Of a stretch of 46,810 nt of DNA, positions 23,686 to 46,810 are shown in pieces. Under the pieces are notes generated by a model, which did no database searches, had not been told where the DNA came from, and was given only the letters and a program-made list of their open reading frames with translations. The stretch is taken from NCBI GenBank assembly GCA_050239825.1, contig JBFXGO010000014.1, forward strand, positions 1 through 46,810, in the 5' to 3' direction. Position 1 is the stretch's first letter; each line of letters starts with the position of its first letter. The position numbers were made by a program, and so were the translations under genes. Source of the DNA: a bacterium. Its GTDB lineage: Bacteria; Hydrothermota; 32-111.

Positions 23686-23969
23686 CTTTTACCTCCGAAA
23701 CATAATATAACTTAACAAAGACCAATGTCAAGAACCATAGGTATGTAGCATACTTTATACTATCCAAACAACTTAATGACACTTTTAATTGAAATTCCCT
23801 TTCCAAATAAAATTGGCGTATTAAAAAGATGAAGCAAGGTTTTGCATAAACACAATTTTTTTGGCTTCAAATTCTCATATACTACTTTAATTGCTTTCTC
23901 TATCTTATTATTTTATAGTTATTTAAAATATTTATAAAAAGTATAAACCATACTCCGTCCCTATAAAAG

Positions 23970-23994
23970 AAAAAGGGGCGGAGTGCCGCCCCTT
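23970..23994 (-). terminator. Intrinsic terminator
   Basis: AAGGGGCGG-CACT-CCGCCCCTT followed by T tract after the lipoprotein gene. Confidence 0.8.
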
Positions 23995-37405: not shown

Positions 37406-39175
37406 CTATTCCATAACAGCTGTTTCTCTTATAACTTCATCAAGGGTCGTTAGACCATTTTTTATCTTCATAATTGCATCTTCTCGAAGAGTATTCATAC
37501 CCTCTTTTCTCGCCTGCTCCCGAAGGTCCGATGTGCTTGACCTCTTTAAAATCATATCTCGGAGCTCCATTGAAATAGGCATCACTTCTGTGACGCAGAG
37601 ACGCCCTTTGTAACCTTTTCCCTTGCACTTGTCGCACCCGTCACCCTTTTCAAAAACCTGATGCCCCTTTAAAAGTATGGGATTGATGTCAAACTGTTTT
37701 AAGGTCTCTTCATCATACACAATCGGCTTTCTGCAGTTTTCACAGACCTTCCTTAACAATCTTTGCGCCTGAATGAGGTTCAAAGAAGCAGATACGAGGA
37801 ATGGCTCAATGCCCATATCAATAAGACGGTTCACTGTGGAGGGCGCATCGTTAGTGTGTATCGTTGAAACCACGAGATGTCCTGTAAGAGCGGCTCTGAT
37901 CGCTATCTCGGCTGTCTCGGAATCTCTTATCTCTCCAACAAGAATAACATTCGGCGATTGGCGGAGAAATGCTCTTAGAGCCACGGAGAAATTGAATCCT
38001 ATGTCCGAATTCATCTGAACCTGATTTATTCCATACAGATTGTATTCAATCGGGTCTTCAGCAGTCATTATCTGAATTTCAGGAGTGTTTAAAGACGACA
38101 ATGCCGAATAGAGTGTGGTGGATTTTCCTGAGCCGGTAGGACCCGTGACAAGAACAATTCCGTAGGGTTTGTGAATTGATGCCTGAAATTTTTCAAGAGC
38201 TTCAGGCTCAAATCCGAGTTTTGTCATCTCAAGCTGGAGAGAGGATTTGTCAAGTATTCTCATGACAACCTTCTCGCCGAACAGAACAGGTATTATCGAA
38301 ACGCGCAGGTCTATCTGTTTGTCCATCACCTTCAGTCTTATTCTTCCGTCCTGCGGAATGTTGTGAACTGCAATGTCCAATTCTGCCAGCAGTTTCAATC
38401 TTGAAATTATTCCGGCTTTAAGTTCATAAGGCGGTCTTATCAGCTCTGAGAGCACACCGTCAATTCTAATACGAACCTTGATATGTTTCTCAAATGGTTC
38501 AATGTGTATATCAGATGCATTAAGCTCAACTGCCTTCGTGAAAATATAATTTACCACCTTAACGACTGGCTTATCGTCAGCGGCATTGACTCCGTCGATT
38601 ACTGTCTCCTTGGAATCAAATTCCGCCATTACTTCAAGGTCATCACTACCGCCGGAAAAATCATCTTCATCTATATCTATGTCTATTTCCGCTTCATCCT
38701 CGTCAATGTCAATGTCAATGTCGTCTTCCGAATCAAACTCCGATACTTGGGTCTGCGCTTCTCTATACTTGCCGAGAGCTTTCTGAAGCGATGTCTCGGT
38801 TGTCACAACGGGTATTACATCAAGACCTGTTTTAAATTTTACATCATCAATTGCATTTAAATTGGCAGGATTTATCATCGCAATAAAAAGCATGTTTCCC
38901 ATCTTCTTATACGGTATGAGTCCGTGTTTGTTCGCCAACTCTTCGGAGACAAGATTTAAAACCTGTATGGGTGTCTCCTCTTTGTCAATCTGAATGAAAT
39001 CTGTCTTAAAATATTTGGCAAGAAATTTTGCCACCTTGTCTTCTGTTGAAAAACCGAGAGAGACCATTGTTTTGATGAATGTATCTCCGCTCACTTTCTG
39101 TTCTTCAAATATCTTCTTTACCTGTTCCCTGTTTAGAAGACCCGACATGACGAACAGATTCGCTAATGTCTGCAT
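37406..39175 (-). CDS. pilB: Type IV pilus assembly ATPase, paralogue 2
   Basis: ASDIHIEP, PQDGR, GPTGSGKST, AEDPIE, GEIRD, CENC...CDKC. Confidence 0.92.
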   Translation of the reverse strand: MQTLANLFVMSGLLNREQVKKIFEEQKVSGDTFIKTMVSLGFSTEDKVAKFLAKYFKTDFIQIDKEETPIQVLNLVSEELANKHGLIPYKKMGNMLFIAMINPANLNAIDDVKFKTGLDVIPVVTTETSLQKALGKYREAQTQVSEFDSEDDIDIDIDEDEAEIDIDIDEDDFSGGSDDLEVMAEFDSKETVIDGVNAADDKPVVKVVNYIFTKAVELNASDIHIEPFEKHIKVRIRIDGVLSELIRPPYELKAGIISRLKLLAELDIAVHNIPQDGRIRLKVMDKQIDLRVSIIPVLFGEKVVMRILDKSSLQLEMTKLGFEPEALEKFQASIHKPYGIVLVTGPTGSGKSTTLYSALSSLNTPEIQIMTAEDPIEYNLYGINQVQMNSDIGFNFSVALRAFLRQSPNVILVGEIRDSETAEIAIRAALTGHLVVSTIHTNDAPSTVNRLIDMGIEPFLVSASLNLIQAQRLLRKVCENCRKPIVYDEETLKQFDINPILLKGHQVFEKGDGCDKCKGKGYKGRLCVTEVMPISMELRDMILKRSSTSDLREQARKEGMNTLREDAIMKIKNGLTTLDEVIRETAVME

Positions 39176-39176
39176 A

Positions 39177-40892
39177 TTATCTCAGCCCCGTCTCTTTAAC
39201 AGCTTCAAGAATATCCACTATCCCCTGATTCATCTTTCTAACCGCTATCTGTCTCAGTGTTATCATGCCATTCTGAACTGCTACTGCCTCAAGGTCATCT
39301 GTCGGAAGTTTTTTCATAATCGCTCTTCTTATCTCAGGCGACATCTCCATCACTTCAAAAAGTCCGACCATTCCCTTATATCCTGTATTTCCGCATTTTT
39401 CACAGCCTCGTCCTTTCATTAAAGTATTGCCTTTGAAGTCCTCCGGTTTGAACCCGAGCCGTATCAGCTCCTCATCGCTCTTTACATCCGGCACTTTGCA
39501 GTTGGTGCAGATCCTCCTCACAAGACGCTGTGATACTATGCAGTTGATTGTGGACGAGATAAGAAAGGGCTCCACTCCCATGTTTATCAAACGGGTTATG
39601 GTGCCTGCCGATGAATTGGTGTGTACAGACGACAGAACAAGGTGACCGGTCAATGAAGCTCTAATGGCTATCTCCGCAGTATCCTTGTCTCTGACCTCTC
39701 CCACCATTATCACATTCGGATCCTGTCTGAGGTAGGCTCTGAGAGCAGATGCGAATGTCAAACCCACGGCTTCCTGTACCTGAAGCTGATTAATTCCATC
39801 CAAGGAAAACTCTATCGGGTCCTCAGCCGTTGTGATATTGAGCTCCGGGGAGCTTATCTTTTCTATGCAGGTGTAAAGGGTTGTGGTCTTTCCGCATCCT
39901 GTGGGACCTGTTATAAGAATTATACCCACAGGATTTCTGAGAGATTTCATAAGAATTCTTTCGAGGTCTTCCTCGAATCCCAATTTGTCAAATTCAAAAT
40001 CCACCTTCTCTCTGTCCAGAATTCTCATCGCGACTTTCTCTCCATACATTGTGGGACATGTCGCAACGCGGATATCAATTGGTTTGTCATGAACTCTTAC
40101 TTTTATTCTTCCGTCCTGCGGAAGACGAGTCTCCTGCAGACGCATTCTGCCCATAACCTTTACTCTTGAAACCAATGCTTTTCTGTATTGCCAGCGGGGA
40201 GGTCTTTCAATAGGCCTCAATACACCATCTATTCTAAATCGTATTCTCAATGATTGATCGTATGGCTCAATATGAATATCTGAAGCGCCCTGCTCTACGG
40301 CAGATGTGATAAGACTGTTTACTATTTTTACTATGGGTCCGCTTTCAACATTAGCCGCAAGGTCGCTTATTGCATCATCTGCCTGTTCATTTTCATCTTT
40401 TTTTATAACCTCAATATCCTCATCCTGAATTTCATCAATATCCACAATATCATCAAGATGAACTTCAACATTTGCATAATATTTTTCTATGAAACTATCA
40501 ACAGAATTCTCAGTCGCAACAAGAGGAATTATATTGTGTGCAGTAGTAAATTTCAAATCCTCCAAAGCAAAAATATCCGCAGGATTTGTCATTGCAAGAT
40601 AAATGCTTCTACCTTCTCGTCTCACGGGGAATACTGAATATTTTTTTGCCAGATTTGCAGGAATGACTTGCAGAAGAGATTCATCTATTTGAATTTCATT
40701 AAGATTGATGGATTGCACCTTGTATTGGCGGGATAAAAATTCAACAAGTTTGTTTTCAGATGTAAAACCAAGCTCTACTAAGATAGAACCCAATTTTTTA
40801 GTAGTGCCTTTTTGGGCTTTCAATGCCTCATTTAGCTGTTCATTATTTATCAGCCCGGCATTGATGAGCATGTTTCCAAGTTTTTCCGACAT
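39177..40892 (-). CDS. pilB: Type IV pilus assembly ATPase, paralogue 1, with MshEN-like N-terminus
   Basis: KLGNMLINAGLI, ASDIHIEP, GPTGCGKT, RQDPN, CTNC...CEKC. Confidence 0.92.
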   Translation of the reverse strand: MSEKLGNMLINAGLINNEQLNEALKAQKGTTKKLGSILVELGFTSENKLVEFLSRQYKVQSINLNEIQIDESLLQVIPANLAKKYSVFPVRREGRSIYLAMTNPADIFALEDLKFTTAHNIIPLVATENSVDSFIEKYYANVEVHLDDIVDIDEIQDEDIEVIKKDENEQADDAISDLAANVESGPIVKIVNSLITSAVEQGASDIHIEPYDQSLRIRFRIDGVLRPIERPPRWQYRKALVSRVKVMGRMRLQETRLPQDGRIKVRVHDKPIDIRVATCPTMYGEKVAMRILDREKVDFEFDKLGFEEDLERILMKSLRNPVGIILITGPTGCGKTTTLYTCIEKISSPELNITTAEDPIEFSLDGINQLQVQEAVGLTFASALRAYLRQDPNVIMVGEVRDKDTAEIAIRASLTGHLVLSSVHTNSSAGTITRLINMGVEPFLISSTINCIVSQRLVRRICTNCKVPDVKSDEELIRLGFKPEDFKGNTLMKGRGCEKCGNTGYKGMVGLFEVMEMSPEIRRAIMKKLPTDDLEAVAVQNGMITLRQIAVRKMNQGIVDILEAVKETGLR

Positions 40893-40900
40893 ATCATAAT

Positions 40901-40928
40901 ATTTTATACAAATAACATATTAAGTCAA
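40901..40928 (-). promoter_or_regulatory. Sigma-70-type promoter of the pil operon
   Basis: TTGACT-16-TAAAAT, 8 nt before ATG 40892. Confidence 0.65.
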
Positions 40929-40986
40929 GCATAAATATATAATATAAACAGTATTTATTTAATTAAACAAGTTTCTAATTGAATAC

Positions 40987-42640
40987 AATATAGGGAAGTT
41001 TAGTAAATGACTTGCCTTTACAACTCCGACGAAAAATTCCAGTGCTGCCCCCCAAGTCAGCCTTGAGCCGTGAGCCATGTGCCATGAGCTTAATGCGGGG
41101 AGCTGAGTAAATAACTTGCCTTTACAGTTCCGAATGAGAAGCCTGTCCACAGCGCTCGTCTGTCCAATGCTTCTCATGAGGACAATCAAGTCAATGACTT
41201 ATTGAAAGTAAAAGCTTCAAGTCGGCGAGGACGCTCCGCGAAGACGCCCATCAAGTGGGCGACCCCTTGCTACGCTATCCCATCTTGATAAAGCGGCGAA
41301 GCGGAGTGTGTGAGCCGACGCTACGCCCGCGTGTAGCCACTAAGTCAGCCCTGAGCCTTGAGCCATGTGCCTTGAGCTTAATACGGAGAGTTGAGTAAAT
41401 AACTTGCCTTTACAGTTCCGAGGAAAAATTCCAGTGCATCTCCGCACTGCTATTCAATGTTTTTCCGAGGACAATCAATTAAATAACTTATTGAGAGTGA
41501 AAGCTACAAGTCGGCGAGGACGCTCCGCGCAGACGCCCATCAAGTGGTTCTCCCCTTGCTCCGCTATCCCATCTTGATAAAGCGGCGAAGCGGAGTGTGT
41601 GAGCCGACGCTAAGCCCGCCAGCAGCCCCCCAAGTCAGCCTTGAGCCGTGAGCCTTGAGCTTAATACGGAGAGATGATTAAGATTTTGTCTTTACAATAA
41701 TCTTCACAAAGTTCTGGTGCAACCCGAGGTCTCTATCATGTGCGTTAGCGCACATTTCACCCCAGCCAATGCTTTGTGAAGATTCAATCAATTAAATAAC
41801 TTATTGAAAGTGAAAGCTACAAGTCGGCGAGGACGCTCCGCGCAGACGCCCATCAAGTGGTTCTCCCCTTGCTCCGCTATCCCATCTTGATAAAGCGGCG
41901 AAGCGGAGTGTGTGAGCTGACGCTACGCCCGCCAGCAGACCCCAAGTCAGCCCTGAGCCGTGTGCCTTGTGCCATGAGCTTAATGCGGGGAGCTGAGTAA
42001 ATAACTTGCCTTTACAGTTCCGAGGAAAAATTCCAGTGCATCTCCGCATTTAACACAATACTCCTGATGATTAAATAATTTTATCTTTACAGTAATCTTC
42101 ACAAAGTTCTGGTGCAACCCGATACCTCTATCATGTGCGTTCGCGCACATTACACCCTCGCCAATGCTTTGTGAAGATTCAATCAATTAAATAACTTATT
42201 GAAAGTGAAAGCTTCAAGTCGGCGAGGACGCTCCGCGAAGACGCCCATCAAGTGGGCGACTCCATGCTACGCTATCCCATCTTGATATAGCGGCGAAGCG
42301 GAGTGTGTGAGCTGACGCTACGCTATTCAGCAGCCCCCAAGTCAGCCTTGAGCCGTGAGCCTTGTGCCATGAGCATAATACGGGGAGTTGATTAATATTT
42401 ATTCTTTTCAGTAATCTTCACAAAGTTCTGGTGCAACCCGATACCTCTATCATGTGCGTTCGCGCACATTACACCCTCGCCAATGCTTTGTGAAGATTTA
42501 ATCAATTAAATAACTTATTGATACTCGAAAGCTTCAAGTCGGCGAGGACGCTCCGCGAAGACGCCCATCAAGTGGGCGACTCCATGCTACGCTATCCCAT
42601 CTTGATATAGCGGCGAAGCGGAGTGTGTGAGCTGACGCTT
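40987..42640. repeat. Modular structured repeat array 1 (5 core hairpins)
   Basis: Core GTCGGCGAGGACGCTCCGCG at 41221, 41510, 41823, 42218, 42538; periods 289, 313, 395, 320 bp. Confidence 0.95.
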
Positions 42641-42701
42641 GGCTTACCTGCCGCCACCAAACAATCTTCAATTATCAATAAGCAATAAACAATAAACTGA
42701 T

Positions 42702-42745
42702 AGACCCTTCACGATAGTCATAAACACAGAGGCGTTCAGGGTGAC
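42702..42745. repeat. Solo 44-bp REP-like element, same family as the GIY-YIG flanks
   Basis: AGACCCTTCACGATAG...GCGTTCAGGGTGAC aligns without gaps to 46371-46414. Confidence 0.8.
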
Positions 42746-42780
42746 TGAATTGATTAAGTAAATAGCGGTTAGTAAATTTT

Positions 42781-43080
42781 GATTAAAAACGGAGGATGAG
42801 GGACTCAGTCCTCGGTTTTGTTCCTGCATTACTCCGCAATGCTGGGGACATTCCTTCGGTGTGTCCCCACAAAAACTCCGCGCTTCCGCCGCTTCTTCTC
42901 ACGCAGGTGAGCGCGGCTGTCAGCGTTCGAGTCCCATAAGATTAAAAACGGAGGATGAGGGACTCAGTCCTCGGTTTTGTTCCTGCATTACTCCGCAATG
43001 CAGACAAAACTCTCAACTCCGCGCTTCCGCCGCTTCTTCTCACGCAGGTGAGCGCGGCTGTCAGCGTTCGAGTCCCATAA
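42781..43080 (-). repeat. Two tandem tRNA-3'-end-linked elements (159 and 141 bp)
   Basis: GATTAAAAACGGAGGATGAGGGACTC at 42781, 42940 and 43081; the last copy is the real tRNA end. Confidence 0.92.
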
Positions 43081-43089
43081 GATTAAAAA

Positions 43090-43172
43090 CGGAGGATGAG
43101 GGACTCGAACCCCCAAGGGTGTGAACCCGTCGGATTTCAAATCCGATGCCTTACCAGTTAGACTAATCCTCC
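43090..43172 (-). tRNA. tRNA-Ser(TGA)
   Basis: GGAGGAT/ATCCTCC-G acceptor, TCGGA-TTTGAAA-TCCGA anticodon arm, long variable arm, GGGGG-TTCGAGT-CCCTC T arm; CCA not encoded. Confidence 0.93.
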
Positions 43173-43195
43173 GTATTTCAAAAAGCAGAAATGAA

Positions 43196-43223
43196 ATTAT
43201 ATAAGAAATTCAATTCTTGTCAA
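43196..43223 (-). promoter_or_regulatory. Sigma-70 promoter of tRNA-Ser(TGA)
   Basis: TTGACA-16-TATAAT. Confidence 0.8.
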
Positions 43224-43275
43224 TAAAAAATTAAGATGCAAAAATAACAATTAATCTATAACTGGCAGGTATCCT

Positions 43276-43839
43276 TCAACTTTTTAACTTTCTTGAATTT
43301 ATATCAGAATGATTGAAAAGAATTGCAGAACCGGTAAAGATAGTCACAAAAAATGAATTGAGAATGAATATCTTGAAAATGTCAATAAATGTCCCTGATT
43401 CACCTGCAAGAGGTTGTCCGATTATAAATGCCATTAATGTAACAATTGCCTGCACCGCTGCAGTAACAAACATTGCGTATTTCATGCCTCGTGCATTAAA
43501 TTGGGCAATTAAAAGACCTATGAATTCAACTAATATGACCAATAAATATATTGCATTGATTGGATTATTCTCATCTCCGATTATTCCTACAGCAAGGTTT
43601 ATCCAAATGAGAAGAAGTGTGCCCGCAACTGCTAAACCCACGGCCGAGCGATACACCACATCTGTCGCCTTAGTGCACAAGATTTCATAAGCCAATCCAG
43701 AACAGAACAGCAGACCGCCCGCGGCAATAAAATCGAATAATGTCCAATCAACTCCTTCTACAAAACGCATAGCTACGAGAGGTACAAGCAAAATTGATAC
43801 TGTAACTATACCTATGATGATTATGTTTTTTCTTCTCAT
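43276..43839 (-). CDS. Multi-pass membrane protein of unknown function
   Basis: About 6 hydrophobic segments, PLVAMRF..GVDWTLFDF, WINLAVGIIG; AGGAG RBS. Confidence 0.75.
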   Translation of the reverse strand: MRRKNIIIIGIVTVSILLVPLVAMRFVEGVDWTLFDFIAAGGLLFCSGLAYEILCTKATDVVYRSAVGLAVAGTLLLIWINLAVGIIGDENNPINAIYLLVILVEFIGLLIAQFNARGMKYAMFVTAAVQAIVTLMAFIIGQPLAGESGTFIDIFKIFILNSFFVTIFTGSAILFNHSDINSRKLKS

Positions 43840-43890
43840 TCGCTTTTCTCCTTTCTTACATAATAAACATTACATATTTTTGACTGAAAT

Positions 43891-45205
43891 TGAGCCGACG
43901 CTACGCCCGCCAGCAGACCCCAAGTCAGCCCTGAGCCGTGAGCCGTGTGCCGTGAGCTTAATGCGGGGAGCTGATTAATATTTTGTCTTTTCAATTCCGA
44001 ATGAGAAGCCTGTCCACAGCGCTCGTCTGTCCAATGCTTCTCATGAGGACAATCAAGTCAATGACTTATTGAAAGTGAAAGCTACAAGTCGGCGAGGACG
44101 CTCCGCGAAGACGCCCATCAAGTGGCCGACCCCTTGCTACGCTATCCCATCTTGATAAAGCGGCGAAGCGGAGTGTGTGAGCCGACGCTACACCCGCCAG
44201 CAGCCCCCCCAAATCAGCCCTGAGCCTTGTGCCGTGTGCCATGAGCATAATACGGGGAGCTGAGTAAATGACTTGCCTTTACAGTTCCGAGGAAAAATTC
44301 CAGTGCATCTCCGCACTGCTATTCGATGTTTTTCCGAGGACAATCAAGTCAATGACTTATTGAAAGTGAAAGCTACAAGTCGGCGAGGACGCTCCGCGAA
44401 GACGCCCATCAAGTGGCCGACCCCTTGCTACGCTATCCCATCTTGATAAAGCGGCGAAGCGGAGTGTGTGAGCCGACGCTACACCCGCCAGCAGCCCCCC
44501 CAAATCAGCCCTGAGCCTTGTGCCGTGTGCCATGAGCATAATACGGGGAGCTGAGTAAATGACTTGCCTTTACAGTTCCGAGGAAAAATTCCAGTGCATC
44601 TCCGCACTGCTATTCGATGTTTTTCCGAGGACAATCAAGTCAATGACTTATTGAAAGTGAAAGCTACAAGTCGGCGAGGACGCTCCGCGAAGACGCCCAT
44701 CAAGTGGTTCTCCCCTTGCTCCGCTAACCCATCTTGATAAAGCGGCGAAGCGGAGTGTGCGAGCCGACGCTAAGCCCGCGTGCAGCCCCCCCCAAATCAG
44801 CCTTGAGCCGTGAGCCTTGTGCCATGAGCATAATACGGGGAGCTGAGTAAATAACTTGCCTTTACAGTTCCGAGGAAAAATTCCAGTGCATCTCCGCATT
44901 TAACACAATACTCCTGATGATTAAATAATTTTATCTTTACAGTAATCTTCACAAAGTTCTGGTGCAACCCGATACCTCTATCATGTGCGTTCGCGCACAT
45001 TACACCCTCGCCAATGTGGGGACATTCCTACGGTGTGTCCCCACTGCAACAATCAATTAAATAACTTATTGAAAGTGAAAGCTCAAAGTCGGCGAGGACG
45101 CTCCGCGCAGACGCCCATCAAGTGGTTGACCCCTTGCTCCGCTAACCCATCTTGATAAAGCGGCGAAGCGGAGTGTGCGAGCCGACGCTAAGCCCGCGTG
45201 CAGCC
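43891..45205. repeat. Modular structured repeat array 2 (4 core hairpins plus one truncated)
   Basis: Cores at 44088, 44379, 44670, 45088; periods 291, 291, 418 bp. Confidence 0.95.
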
Positions 45206-45222
45206 AATGAACATTTTATCAA

Positions 45223-45414
45223 GATTAAAATCGGAGAGGCTGGGATTCAGTCATCGGTTTTGTTCCTGCATTACTCCGCAATGCTGGGGACATTCCTACG
45301 GTGTGTCCCCACAAAAACTCCGCGCTTCCGCCGCTTATTCTCACGCAGGTGAGCGCGGCTGTCAGCGTTCGAATCCCTGGGGACATTCCTACGGTGTGTC
45401 CCCACTACAAAAAT
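45223..45414 (-). repeat. tRNA-3'-end-linked element at tRNA-Ser(CGA)
   Basis: CGGAGAGGCTGGGATTC (45232-45248) duplicates the tRNA 3' 17 nt; body nearly identical to 42807-42935. Confidence 0.92.
45378..45408 (-). repeat. GTAG-tagged REP-like hairpin (also at 42843-42870, 45016-45047, 45285-45312)
   Basis: TGGGGACATTCCT(A/T)CGGTGTGTCCCCAC occurs four times; the minus strand here reads GTAG-TGGGGACA...TGTCCCCA. Confidence 0.8.
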
Positions 45415-45502
45415 CGGAGAGGCTGGGATTCGAACCCAGGGTACCCGTAAGGATACTCCGCATTTCGAGTGCGGTGCCTTAAACCAACTCGACCACCTCT
45501 CC
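45415..45502 (-). tRNA. tRNA-Ser(CGA)
   Basis: GGAGAGG/CCTCTCC-G acceptor, CCGCA-CTCGAAA-TGCGG anticodon arm, long variable arm, CTGGG-TTCGAAT-CCCAG T arm; CCA not encoded. Confidence 0.95.
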
Positions 45503-45516
45503 AAAGAACTTTCACA

Positions 45517-45544
45517 ATTATATATAAAACAGATATGATTTCAA
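45517..45544 (-). promoter_or_regulatory. Sigma-70 promoter of tRNA-Ser(CGA)
   Basis: TTGAAA-16-TATAAT. Confidence 0.65.
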
Positions 45545-45545
45545 C

Positions 45546-46010
45546 CTATTTCTTTCTTGCTCTTATGAAAAATTCCCTCATCATTTCAGAGCTCTCTTTT
45601 TCAAGAATACCGCCCTCTACAAGAATATTATGATTCAAACCATTGAGTTTCTGAATGTCAATGAGTGAAACGCAGCCTCCACAATTTTTTTCTCTGCATC
45701 CGAAAACAACTCTCTTTACGCGTGCCAGCATTGAAGCTGAAATGCACATAAGACAAGGTTCGACTGTTGAATACAGAGTGCAATTATTCAGCCTCCAGTC
45801 ACCCTCTCTCTTCTGCGCTTTTTTAATGGCTTTTATCTCAGCATGTGAAAATGTTGATTTATCCTTCTCCATAGTGTTATGCGCCCTTGCAATAATCTTT
45901 CCGTCTTTTACTATAACACAACCTATGGGCACTTCATTCTTTTCAAATGCCTTCTCCGCCTCTTTCAAAGCAGATCTCATATATTTTTCGTCAATATTAA
46001 TTTTTTTCAT
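45546..46010 (-). CDS. tadA: tRNA adenosine(34) deaminase
   Basis: EVPIGCVIV, HAEI, WRL, VEPCLMC, LNH. Confidence 0.93.
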   Translation of the reverse strand: MKKINIDEKYMRSALKEAEKAFEKNEVPIGCVIVKDGKIIARAHNTMEKDKSTFSHAEIKAIKKAQKREGDWRLNNCTLYSTVEPCLMCISASMLARVKRVVFGCREKNCGGCVSLIDIQKLNGLNHNILVEGGILEKESSEMMREFFIRARKK

Positions 46011-46036: not shown

Positions 46037-46414
46037 GTCATTCTGACCGGCTCTATTCACTGTTCTCGTGTGAAGAATCTATCAATCTGTTATTTCTTTC
46101 CACTTGTCAATCCATTTTGGATTAATGCTGTTAATCAATCTCTCTTTCTTTTCTCTTTTCCATCCTTTCAATGTTTTCTCTCTTTTAATCGCATTTTCAA
46201 TATCATCATAACACTCATAATAAATTAGAAGACAAGCCTTATACCTCTCTGCGAAACCTTCAATATATTTTTGCTTATGTTCATATGTTCTTCTTACAAT
46301 GTCATTTGTAACACCAGTATAAAGGACTGTCTTGTTTTTGTTTGTAAGAATGTACACATAATACATTGATAGATCCTTCACTATAGACATAACCTCAGAA
46401 GCGTTCAGGATGAC
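46037..46414. mobile_element. Candidate GIY-YIG cassette bounded by 44-bp inverted REP-like elements (46037-46080 and 46371-46414)
   Basis: Left GTCATTCTGA-N24-TGAAGAATCT; right (reverse complement) GTCATCCTGA-N24-TGAAGGATCT. Confidence 0.6.
46082..46366 (-). CDS. Minimal stand-alone GIY-YIG nuclease
   Basis: YYVYIL..LYTGVTNDIVRRTYEHK..AIKREKTLKGWKREKK..NPKW; likely start at 46366. Confidence 0.9.
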   Translation of the reverse strand: MYYVYILTNKNKTVLYTGVTNDIVRRTYEHKQKYIEGFAERYKACLLIYYECYDDIENAIKREKTLKGWKREKKERLINSINPKWIDKWKEITD

Positions 46415-46424
46415 ATTACTATTT

Positions 46425-46810
46425 GGGACACTCCGTCACCTCTCTTGAATAGAAGCATGTTCCTGCCCGGTGAACGAACCCCTTCTTACCCGAAGGGACA
46501 CTCCGTCACCTCTCTTGAATAGAAGCATGTCCCTGCCCGGTGAACGAACCCCTTCTTACCCGAAGGGACACTCCGTCACCTCTCTTGAATAGAAGCATGT
46601 CCCTGCCCGGTGAACGAACCCCTTCTACGGGGTTGTGCTTCGCGCACGGCTTTCAGCCGCTTCGAGTCCCTCTATGTTAAAGAAAATGCGCCCGAAGGGA
46701 CACTCCGTCACCTCTCTGGAATAGAAGCATGTCCCTGCCCGGTGAGCGAACCCCTTCGACGGGGTTGTGCTTCGCACACGGCTTTCAGCCGCTTCGAGTC
46801 GCGCTATGTC
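46425..46810 (-). repeat. Tandem repeats (70, 70, 132 bp, then partial) carrying a probable tRNA-Arg 3' end
   Basis: GGGACACTCCGTCACC at 46425, 46495, 46565, 46697; TGCGCCCGAAGGGAC is the reverse complement of GTCCCTTCGGGCGCA. Confidence 0.85.

Follow-up and report, generated by a model that had tools for sequence, protein, structure and literature searches.

This analysis concerns a window of 46,810 nucleotides, positions 1 to 46,810 of contig JBFXGO010000014.1, from a genome of 2.1 Mb in 67 contigs that belongs to an uncultured WOR-3 lineage (the genome is labelled G000 and its contigs carry C-numbers). Positions 40987 to 45205 of the window hold two arrays in which a long hairpin alternates with short recurring modules. 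We conclude that this repeat family works like repetitive extragenic palindromic (REP) sequences and their bacterial interspersed mosaic elements (BIME), like the Neisseria intergenic mosaic elements (NIME) or like BOX, but is a member of none of them, and that it is most likely selfish or semi-domesticated. On balance we lean towards the arrays being genus-specific, non-coding and non-autonomous mosaic DNA that is mobile or recombining and is copied via a folded single strand, possibly by REP-transposase-like enzymes. The folded single strand would be the substrate of the copying or recombining machinery, for which the REP-transposase-like HUH (Y1) enzymes of this genome are candidates. Elements reach a locus with defined ends, ragged on the 5' side and sharp on the 3' side. 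Recombination or gene conversion between shared hairpin and linker segments would then lengthen or shorten the arrays and exchange their modules (T1-T3, A-D), and we propose that exchange at these shared segments keeps the copies in one genome near-identical. If true, this would be a well-resolved selfish repeat under selection for shape and not for sequence, in a phylum without cultured members.

The layout of the family was read genome-wide, from the 60 segments between consecutive hairpins and from a module-by-module annotation. The 60 segments consist of a few recurring module types. Each unit runs in the order tract (T1, T2 or T3), linker, cassette (A, B or C, sometimes with D), leader and hairpin, with two conserved segments (the linker, and the leader plus hairpin) and two variable slots (the tract and the cassette). 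The original prediction, made from the letters of the window alone, had recognised cassettes A, B and C, which do exist, but had assigned them to a single variable slot; there are two such slots, and a fourth module, D. T1 begins with TGAGCCN heptamers and T2 with CAATNNN heptamers, and T3 appears 7-periodic by eye. The heptamer tracts that had been noticed in the window were recovered by Tandem Repeats Finder (TRF). Genome-wide TRF made 471 period-7 calls, many of two copies only, and 104 of them lie in arrays or at most 150 nt away, zones that make up 2.5% of the genome. Module D is found inside arrays in 45 of its 48 copies and shares the orientation of the array in 44 of these 45.

We read the ends of all arrays by eye. 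The elements have defined ends, sharp on the 3' side at the linker TTTAC and ragged on the 5' side in the 3' foot of the hairpin. Among the 17 arrays that end in T2, 11 run on into the linker and halt at TTT(T)AC. This end of the linker is the cassette junction inside arrays and also the outer 3' end of many arrays. On the 5' side, 9 of the 14 arrays that begin with T1 open with the 3' foot alone of a hairpin of the alpha or beta subfamily, and the break falls 1-8 nt upstream of the internal-loop bases. The two ends, hairpin foot and TTTAC, are not inverted copies of each other. Arrays can be written as S(XS)n, where S stands for foot-tract-linker and X for cassette-leader-hairpin up to the loop. 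Defined and polar ends argue that a copying or transposition event seeded the arrays and that unequal recombination came afterwards. Some 20 more half-copies, which are 3' halves, often lie beside D or short REP-type repeats. The cassette slot itself has its left border at ...TTAC and its right border at ...TCAA.

The fold of the hairpin was examined in an alignment of 31 hairpins of the alpha, short-tip, beta and gamma subfamilies, taken from G000 and from two other genomes of the same genus, G001 (99% complete) and G002 (91%). The structure has four helices and 29 pairs. Standard pairs occupy 92% of the cells, against 24-44% when the partners are slid by 1-3 columns, and both sides have changed in 19 of the 29 pairs; none of 500 shuffles reached the observed values. 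One G-U (G-T) pair is invariant in all 31 sequences. The 4x4 internal loop beside it, GAGG opposite GYGA, is almost invariant, and G-A oppositions recur elsewhere. The feet of the hairpin read GTCGGC/GCCGAC, GCTCAT/ATGAGC or GCCGGC/GCCGGC. Such double changes indicate that hairpin pairing is under selection across three subfamilies and three species. Compensatory changes are also present in the outer and inner stems of cassette C. Folded as the + strand, the hairpin has a z-score of -3.7, cassette C one of -6.6 and cassette B one of -4.1. The minus strand of the hairpin reaches -2.0, and a whole unit scores -3.15 on the + strand versus -0.36 on the minus strand. Together with the copy number in the genome, the folding z-scores show that the structure is not due to chance.

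Within the genome, the 84 standard copies are nearly identical. Private substitutions per site amount to 0.35% in stems versus 0.64% in unpaired positions (p=0.07). All but two of the common variants lie in loops, and the loop alleles show no association with which cassette or tract lies next to them. The stem variants comprise 13 of G-T type and 10 of A-C type, which is no G-T bias; with the invariant site removed, the cross-species alignment gives 18 and 14. It had been suggested from the window that core copies differ in the apical loop or by G-U-compatible changes. The changes in stems, however, are not confined to the G-U-compatible kind. Copies differ by ~15% between species. The pattern is consistent with concerted evolution, or else with recent bursts within each species, the fold presumably being selected at copying; a fold policed locus by locus would fit it less well.

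The family is abundant in this genome and narrow in its distribution. A blastn search found 103 copies of at least 130 nt. A motif search found 101 complete hairpins in 46 intergenic regions that total 39.7 kb, or 1.9% of the genome; 84 of the hairpins are standard, 8 carry D in the apex, 5 have a short apex and 4 are beta hairpins, with length variants of 77, 114 and 124-141 nt. Outside this genome, blastn of the core gave hits in 3 of 41 relatives, all in the genus, and a covariance model (R1; 99 positions, 29 pairs) gave hits in 3 of 151 genomes of the phylum. A pattern scan of one genome per species, covering 185,579 species, returned 8 contigs from only two metagenome-assembled genome records, one of which is titled candidate division WOR-3. 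Viral contigs gave 0 pattern matches. Metagenome contigs gave 5 loci, and at 4 of them the flanking DNA aligns with this genome at 71-83% identity across more than 400 nt. Rfam at its gathering threshold matched only two tRNA-Ser genes, and at E<=5 over 40900-45600 nothing fell on the arrays. We found no description of the family in the literature, which does not prove that none exists. Among the genomes searched, the family was found only in this genus.

Many copies in G001 and G002 lie at contig ends. With ~2% of the genome made of these repeats, this suggests that they break short-read assemblies there. The assembly was checked against Logan contigs of two sequencing runs, X1 and X2, which are short inside repeats and do not reach the order and number of units within arrays. 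The junctions between unique and repeat DNA are confirmed by the Logan contigs of X1. A search of sequencing runs returned four DNA runs, one of them with 76% of the searched words, and no RNA run. The X1 depth is ~17-20 on unique DNA versus ~1250-2200 in the deepest core bins, which is compatible with roughly 100 genomic copies.

Comparison of shared loci shows turnover. At the pilB locus, G000 has five units upstream of pilB. G001 has there the tRNA-Ser and its tRNA-linked element, with a readable linker and B-like start followed by ~170 masked bases, and G002 has neither array nor tRNA at that place. At a locus on contig C25, an array of ~460 bp in G000 corresponds to a 58-nt spacer in G002. 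The C25 array stands after the intrinsic terminator of the upstream gene and before the TTGTCA-17-TATAAT promoter of the next gene. The flank of a third locus, on C7, is matched by a metagenome contig (L131). A tRNA gene lies within 1.5 kb of only 3 of 43 arrays, and a link to tRNA genes was rejected as a general feature of the arrays. Near-consensus promoters are present at the tRNA genes that adjoin arrays. No per-unit sigma-70-like promoter recurs in the arrays, except TTAACA-18-AATAAT at two B'C junctions, and reading by eye for sigma-54 or extended -10 sites gave nothing convincing.

The arrays are strongly oriented. All hairpins lie on one strand in 42 of 43 array clusters, and the sole mixed region, on C39, consists of two back-to-back arrays. 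We tallied the strands of flanking genes of at least 150 aa for the 46 regions. The + strand of the array, defined as in the window, is antisense to both flanking genes in 14 regions and sense to both in 2, one of which is the mixed back-to-back region; the flanks are divergent in 9 regions and convergent in 8, and 13 regions touch a contig end. Where the flanks are co-directional, the + strand is antisense in 14 of 16 cases (one-sided binomial ~0.002), or in 15 of 16 with cruder gene calls. In 35 of 41 arrays the + strand coincides with the C-rich strand. Gene strand matches GC skew in 159 of 178 10-kb windows, so effects of replication and transcription are inseparable in this 67-contig assembly.

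The genome encodes four Y1_Tnp proteins of 259-301 aa (C14:63662-64483, C5:4330-5109, C56:11012-11902 and C18:43111-44016). Their best match is the NCBIfam family 'REP-associated tyrosine transposase' (RAYT), at 57-73 bits, below its cut-off of 80, and two of the four have weak C-terminal helix-turn-helix matches. Each gene is flanked by its own inverted repeats of 25-37 nt, which have 8-18 genomic occurrences; three of the repeats start with NTAGGGACGG and one with AGCGGCGGGG. One short REP copy lies in the window at 23934-23974. Judging by this layout, the Y1_Tnp genes and their own repeats are a textbook RAYT/REP arrangement in a candidate phylum. G001 and G002 have six REP-transposase-like matches each. 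The minus strand at the foot of most hairpins had been read as GTAG-C. GTAGC is indeed present in 66 of 101 hairpins, but its G is not kept (ATAGC in 21 and TTAGC in 10), so that the common form is NTAGC (97 of 101). The short REPs of the transposases, where they lie inside arrays, are co-oriented with the minus strand of the hairpin in 17 of 18 cases. For TnpB, no match in the genome reaches the family cut-off, and neither an IS200-type short TnpA nor an IS110-type transposase was found. The genome has five Phage_integrase matches, none of which adjoins an array; the nearest is ~4 kb from a beta copy on C66.

Several observations weigh against the reading towards which we lean, in which such enzymes may do the copying. 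The long hairpin flanks none of the four Y1_Tnp genes, and no enzyme is tied to the hairpin. REP-transposase-like genes occur in 29 of 41 genomes of the phylum, most of them without the hairpin, and the presence of a RAYT was rejected as a marker for the hairpin (29/41 with the gene versus 3/41 with the hairpin). The 17/18 co-orientation may reflect a few composite modules that were copied together. The strand that would be active is ambiguous, because the + strand folds best while the GTAG-type tag and the expected exposed strand are on the minus side; the leading strand is usually G-rich, so the minus strand is expected to be exposed at the fork. The invariant G-T pair and the purine-rich loops are on the + strand. 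To our knowledge, a 29-bp four-helix structure kept at full length exceeds the needs of known HUH enzymes, and it would also fit an RNA. At the single empty/occupied pair, the C25 locus, neither a target-site duplication nor a conserved target could be made out, because the flanks have diverged. A narrow regular-expression search of the genome found no empty linker, that is, a unit without a cassette in which TTAC stands next to the hairpin block. As no empty cassette site was found, the mobility of cassettes as such is unproven.

The units could instead be structured RNAs, each a hairpin with its cassette made from the + strand or as part of neighbouring transcripts, and the arrays multi-copy RNA loci. 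Such an RNA might, for example, bind proteins as a scaffold, govern processing or stability, or act as a small RNA; we regard this as possible but doubtful. The features that would fit it are covariation in all four helices, the invariant G-U pair, the purine-rich internal loops on one strand (GAGG/GYGA and tandem G-A) and the compensatory changes in cassette C. Of the two strands, only the + strand folds far better than its shuffles, and the loop variants of D on the + strand are TTCG and TACG, which we take to be UNCG tetraloops. However, the arrays have no Rfam match even at E<=5, and neither a sigma-70-like promoter nor an intrinsic terminator recurs from unit to unit. Where the neighbours are co-directional, the strand that folds better is antisense to them in 14 of 16 arrays, and the C25 array is placed between a terminator and the next promoter. 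The family is confined to one genus, with copy numbers that vary at shared loci and many truncated or chimeric copies, and stem mutations within the genome lack a G-U bias. The same RNA-like features of the + strand would be expected of SINE-like retro-elements spread via an RNA copy and a reverse transcriptase; the arrays' sharp 3' ends and their ragged 5' truncation at the foot of a stable hairpin would then be traces of incomplete reverse transcription. G000 does encode a single, defence-associated reverse transcriptase (497 aa, C17:33700-35190; locus L075 898-2391, minus strand), most similar to Drt4/Drt3b at 100 bits, far below the family cut-offs. Among 41 relatives this enzyme is present in one, G000 itself; G001 and G002 carry arrays and have no RVT_1 match (1 of 3 genomes of the genus), and its upstream region has no similarity to array modules visible by eye. 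We therefore consider a retro-element very unlikely.

The placement of the arrays could also mean that they serve the host as DNA, as recombination hot spots, nucleoid or supercoiling sites or insulators kept for a local role. Such a role would fit their position between terminator and promoter (C25), upstream of the promoter of pilB and on the downstream side of tRNA genes, their strand bias relative to genes and GC skew, and the arrays at shared positions in relatives (pilB in G001; the C7 flank in L131), and NIME arrays have been proposed, in the portion of the report drawn on here, to promote recombination of flanking genes (PMC1797815). Yet the neighbouring genes inspected show no functional pattern, sister species differ in presence or absence at the same locus, and a family so young and so narrow does not suit a core cellular role, which makes this explanation rather improbable. 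We also know of no protein that binds these arrays. About as improbable, in our judgement, is a system in which the hairpin is a recombination or nicking site for single-strand-specific shuffling, with a RAYT-like HUH enzyme in place of an integrase and a logic like that of integrons or rolling-circle elements. Such a system would nick at the internal loop of the hairpin, end at the linker TTAC and move short non-coding cassettes among ~46 arrays; its working parts would be the polarity of the arrays, the G-T pair that never varies, the conserved loop GAGG/GYGA and the TTAC and TCAA borders of the cassettes. If true, it would be a new HUH way of moving DNA, in which REP-transposase-like proteins act on a substrate of a new size class. 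In the reading towards which we lean, mosaic DNA copied via a folded single strand, the same enzymes would be candidates for copying the element, with modules exchanged at the shared hairpin and linker.

The two arrays in the window, both on the + strand, illustrate this organization. As predicted, the window has nine full-length hairpins, five between 41221 and 42636 and four between 44088 and 45186, all on the + strand. Each is 99 nt from foot to foot within a conserved block of 157 nt, and all nine blocks are 74-100% identical to the reference copy. In array 1 (40993..42745) a linker comes first, then a truncated B and a T1 tract; five units follow, which carry cassettes A, B, C, B'+C and C, with a hairpin after each, and a T2 tract closes the array. 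Its hairpins are at 41221..41319 (alpha type), 41510..41608, 41823..41921, 42218..42316 and 42538..42636; the last three have the foot GCTGAC, which gives a G-T pair. Array 2 (43891..45205) begins with a hairpin 3' foot alone (GAGCCGAC...), has four units with cassettes A, B, B and B'+C with D, and stops at the end of a hairpin block. Its hairpins are at 44088..44186, 44379..44477, 44670..44768 (the reference for searches and for model R1) and 45088..45186. These cassette orders agree with the original prediction, and reading of the region confirmed the places it gave for the cassettes, A at 41134..41177 and 44001-44044, B at 41422-41466, 44291..44335 and 44582-44626, and C at 41699-41784, 42094..42179 and 42413-42498. 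The truncated B' with a second linker lies at 42024-42093 and 44874-44943, and a variant of C that starts near 44944 has its 3' arm replaced by D. This copy of D (45018..45043) is a small GC-clamped hairpin (GGGGACA...TGTCCCC). An example of the T1 tract, at 44799..44829, has 4.4 copies of TGAGCCN-type heptamers; other T1-type tracts start at 41059, 41347, 41637, 41957, 42344, 43927, 44224 and 44515. The T2 tract of array 1 (42660..42745), with CAATNNN heptamers at its start, is the usual 3' terminal module of arrays. The linker following the T1 example (44841..44873) ends in CTTTACAG.

Open reading frames overlap both arrays. Those of 57 aa on the + strand, starting at 41404, 44273 and 44564, are confined to B-type units, and other small frames of 51-83 aa lie on the minus strand. 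Protein coding by the arrays was rejected; the subfamilies differ by paired, stem-preserving changes, which argues against a reading frame.

The arrays are neighboured by genes and by other repeats. On the minus strand at 37406-40892, two tandem genes encode PilB-type ATPases of 571 and 589 aa, followed by genes for PilT-like and PilC-like proteins, a PilS-like kinase and a sigma-54 activator. Array 1 had been placed between a tRNA promoter and the pil promoter. It does lie upstream of the pilB promoter, but it is downstream of tRNA-Ser(tga), whose promoter (43223-43196) is on the far side of the tRNA from the array. The serine tRNA genes are followed by another kind of repeat, the E element of ~115-135 nt, on the minus strand, which stands twice in tandem behind tRNA-Ser(tga) and once behind tRNA-Ser(cga) (42781-42939, 42940-43088 and 45223-45413); a further one (C7:59637-59827) adjoins a putative tRNA-like 3' end. 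The 3' end of the E element repeats the T-arm and acceptor 3' end of the tRNA, while the 5' end is complementary to the T-arm; the two ends vary with the tRNA that the element follows. On the tRNA-sense strand it has a closed three-stem fold, with 4 compensatory pairs among 4 sequences, one of them from G001. The E element could be a very small integrative element that targets tRNA genes, or else a co-transcribed RNA. Further copies of D (42844-42868, 45286-45310 and 45379-45403) lie in or adjoin E elements. Another tandem family, with periods of 70 and 132 nt and 94-99% matches, fills 46419-46809 and has a GGGACA...TGTCCC clamp like that of D; a lone T2-like piece (46367-46414) lies ahead of it. 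Tandem heptamer tracts of 3-6 copies (TCAACTA, AGTTACG, AGCCNTG and others) are common between genes, also away from arrays, for example at C49:4509-9068, C60:24158-24434 and C63:17337-17557. Short tandem heptamer repeats of a comparable kind exist in some cyanobacteria. Intergenic heptamer repeats in Beggiatoaceae, as far as the excerpted account goes, are a parallel for the heptamer tracts only (PMC4679880).

The arrays share single features with several known systems. The prediction that they are neither CRISPR nor an integron held, given the 157-nt repeat block, the recurring modules and the lack of an adjoining integrase and of core sites. CRISPR repeats are ~23-50 nt long and alternate with unique spacers, not with recurring modules. 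Integron attC sites, such as the VCR of Vibrio, are long imperfect hairpins in which fold, unpaired spacer and variable tip outweigh sequence. The likeness to integrons extends to hairpins of similar size, direct arrays, exchangeable segments and an array start that is the 3' part of a site, and chromosomal integrons have a reported orientation bias relative to replication. Here, in contrast, no integrase lies beside any array, 46 arrays are scattered in place of one platform, the 'cassettes' are non-coding and 45-90 nt long, and 40987-45205 contains 0 RYYYAAC...GTTRRRY core-site pairs. The BOX elements of pneumococci are modular non-coding hairpin repeats (boxA-boxB(n)-boxC), and the ERIC/IRU of enterobacteria are imperfect palindromes of ~127 bp; the former resemble the family in their hairpin modules and the latter in size. 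They are mostly single and in transcribed regions, unlike the multi-unit arrays here with alternative modules in two slots. In IS200/IS605 elements, a Y1 HUH enzyme recognises single-stranded DNA hairpins, with a strand bias and a sharp end beside a specific tetranucleotide. The slot borders TTAC and TCAA match the two IS608 cleavage tetranucleotides, a likeness that was spotted after the fact and may be chance. IS200/IS605 elements and their miniature derivatives, the palindrome-associated transposable elements (PATEs), insert 3' of a fixed tetranucleotide and go with a cognate Y1 TnpA and/or TnpB; the only Y1 genes in this genome are RAYT-like. Miniature inverted-repeat transposable elements (MITEs) have terminal inverted repeats and a target-site duplication; in the arrays here, hairpin foot and TTTAC do not mirror each other, and the flanks of the one empty/occupied pair have diverged.

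REP and NIME are the other two points of comparison. REP sequences are described, in the sections available, as palindromic units of 20-40 bp with a GTAG or CGTC tag (PMC3733652; PMC3337134). The family resembles REP/BIME and REPIN elements as a high-copy extragenic palindrome in a genome with RAYT-like genes, and its subfamilies retain fold and not sequence; an unpaired GTAG-type tag adjoins the foot on one strand in 66 of 101 copies, with TAGC kept and the G not. It differs in its 99 nt, four helices and conserved internal loops, compared with 20-40 bp, and in its strictly direct arrays, whereas REPIN and BIME units are inverted; here, short repeats of other kinds border the RAYT-like genes. 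Of the two alternatives proposed from the letters alone, the BIME-like REP mosaic is the better supported, in view of GTAGC at the foot of most copies and of the four REP-transposase-like genes, but in size, orientation and gene flanks the family falls outside the strict definition. NIME differ in other respects. The hairpin here is a covarying four-helix structure of 99 nt, each unit has two variable slots, and the module types are a handful. We know of no phage or transposase that targets this hairpin, unlike the case of NIME. In NIME, according to the part of the report used here, intergenic arrays alternate the dRS3 inverted repeat (20 bp, ATTCCCN8GGGAAT) with RS elements of more than 100 families (PMC1797815); the dRS3 pattern has 0 matches in this genome. 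The architecture is nevertheless alike, as in both cases a constant inverted repeat alternates head to tail with families of variable segments, which in the NIME so described are 50-150 bp long (PMC1797815). The two families are also alike, on the same partial account, in that array length and repeat number vary between related genomes of a single genus (PMC1797815).

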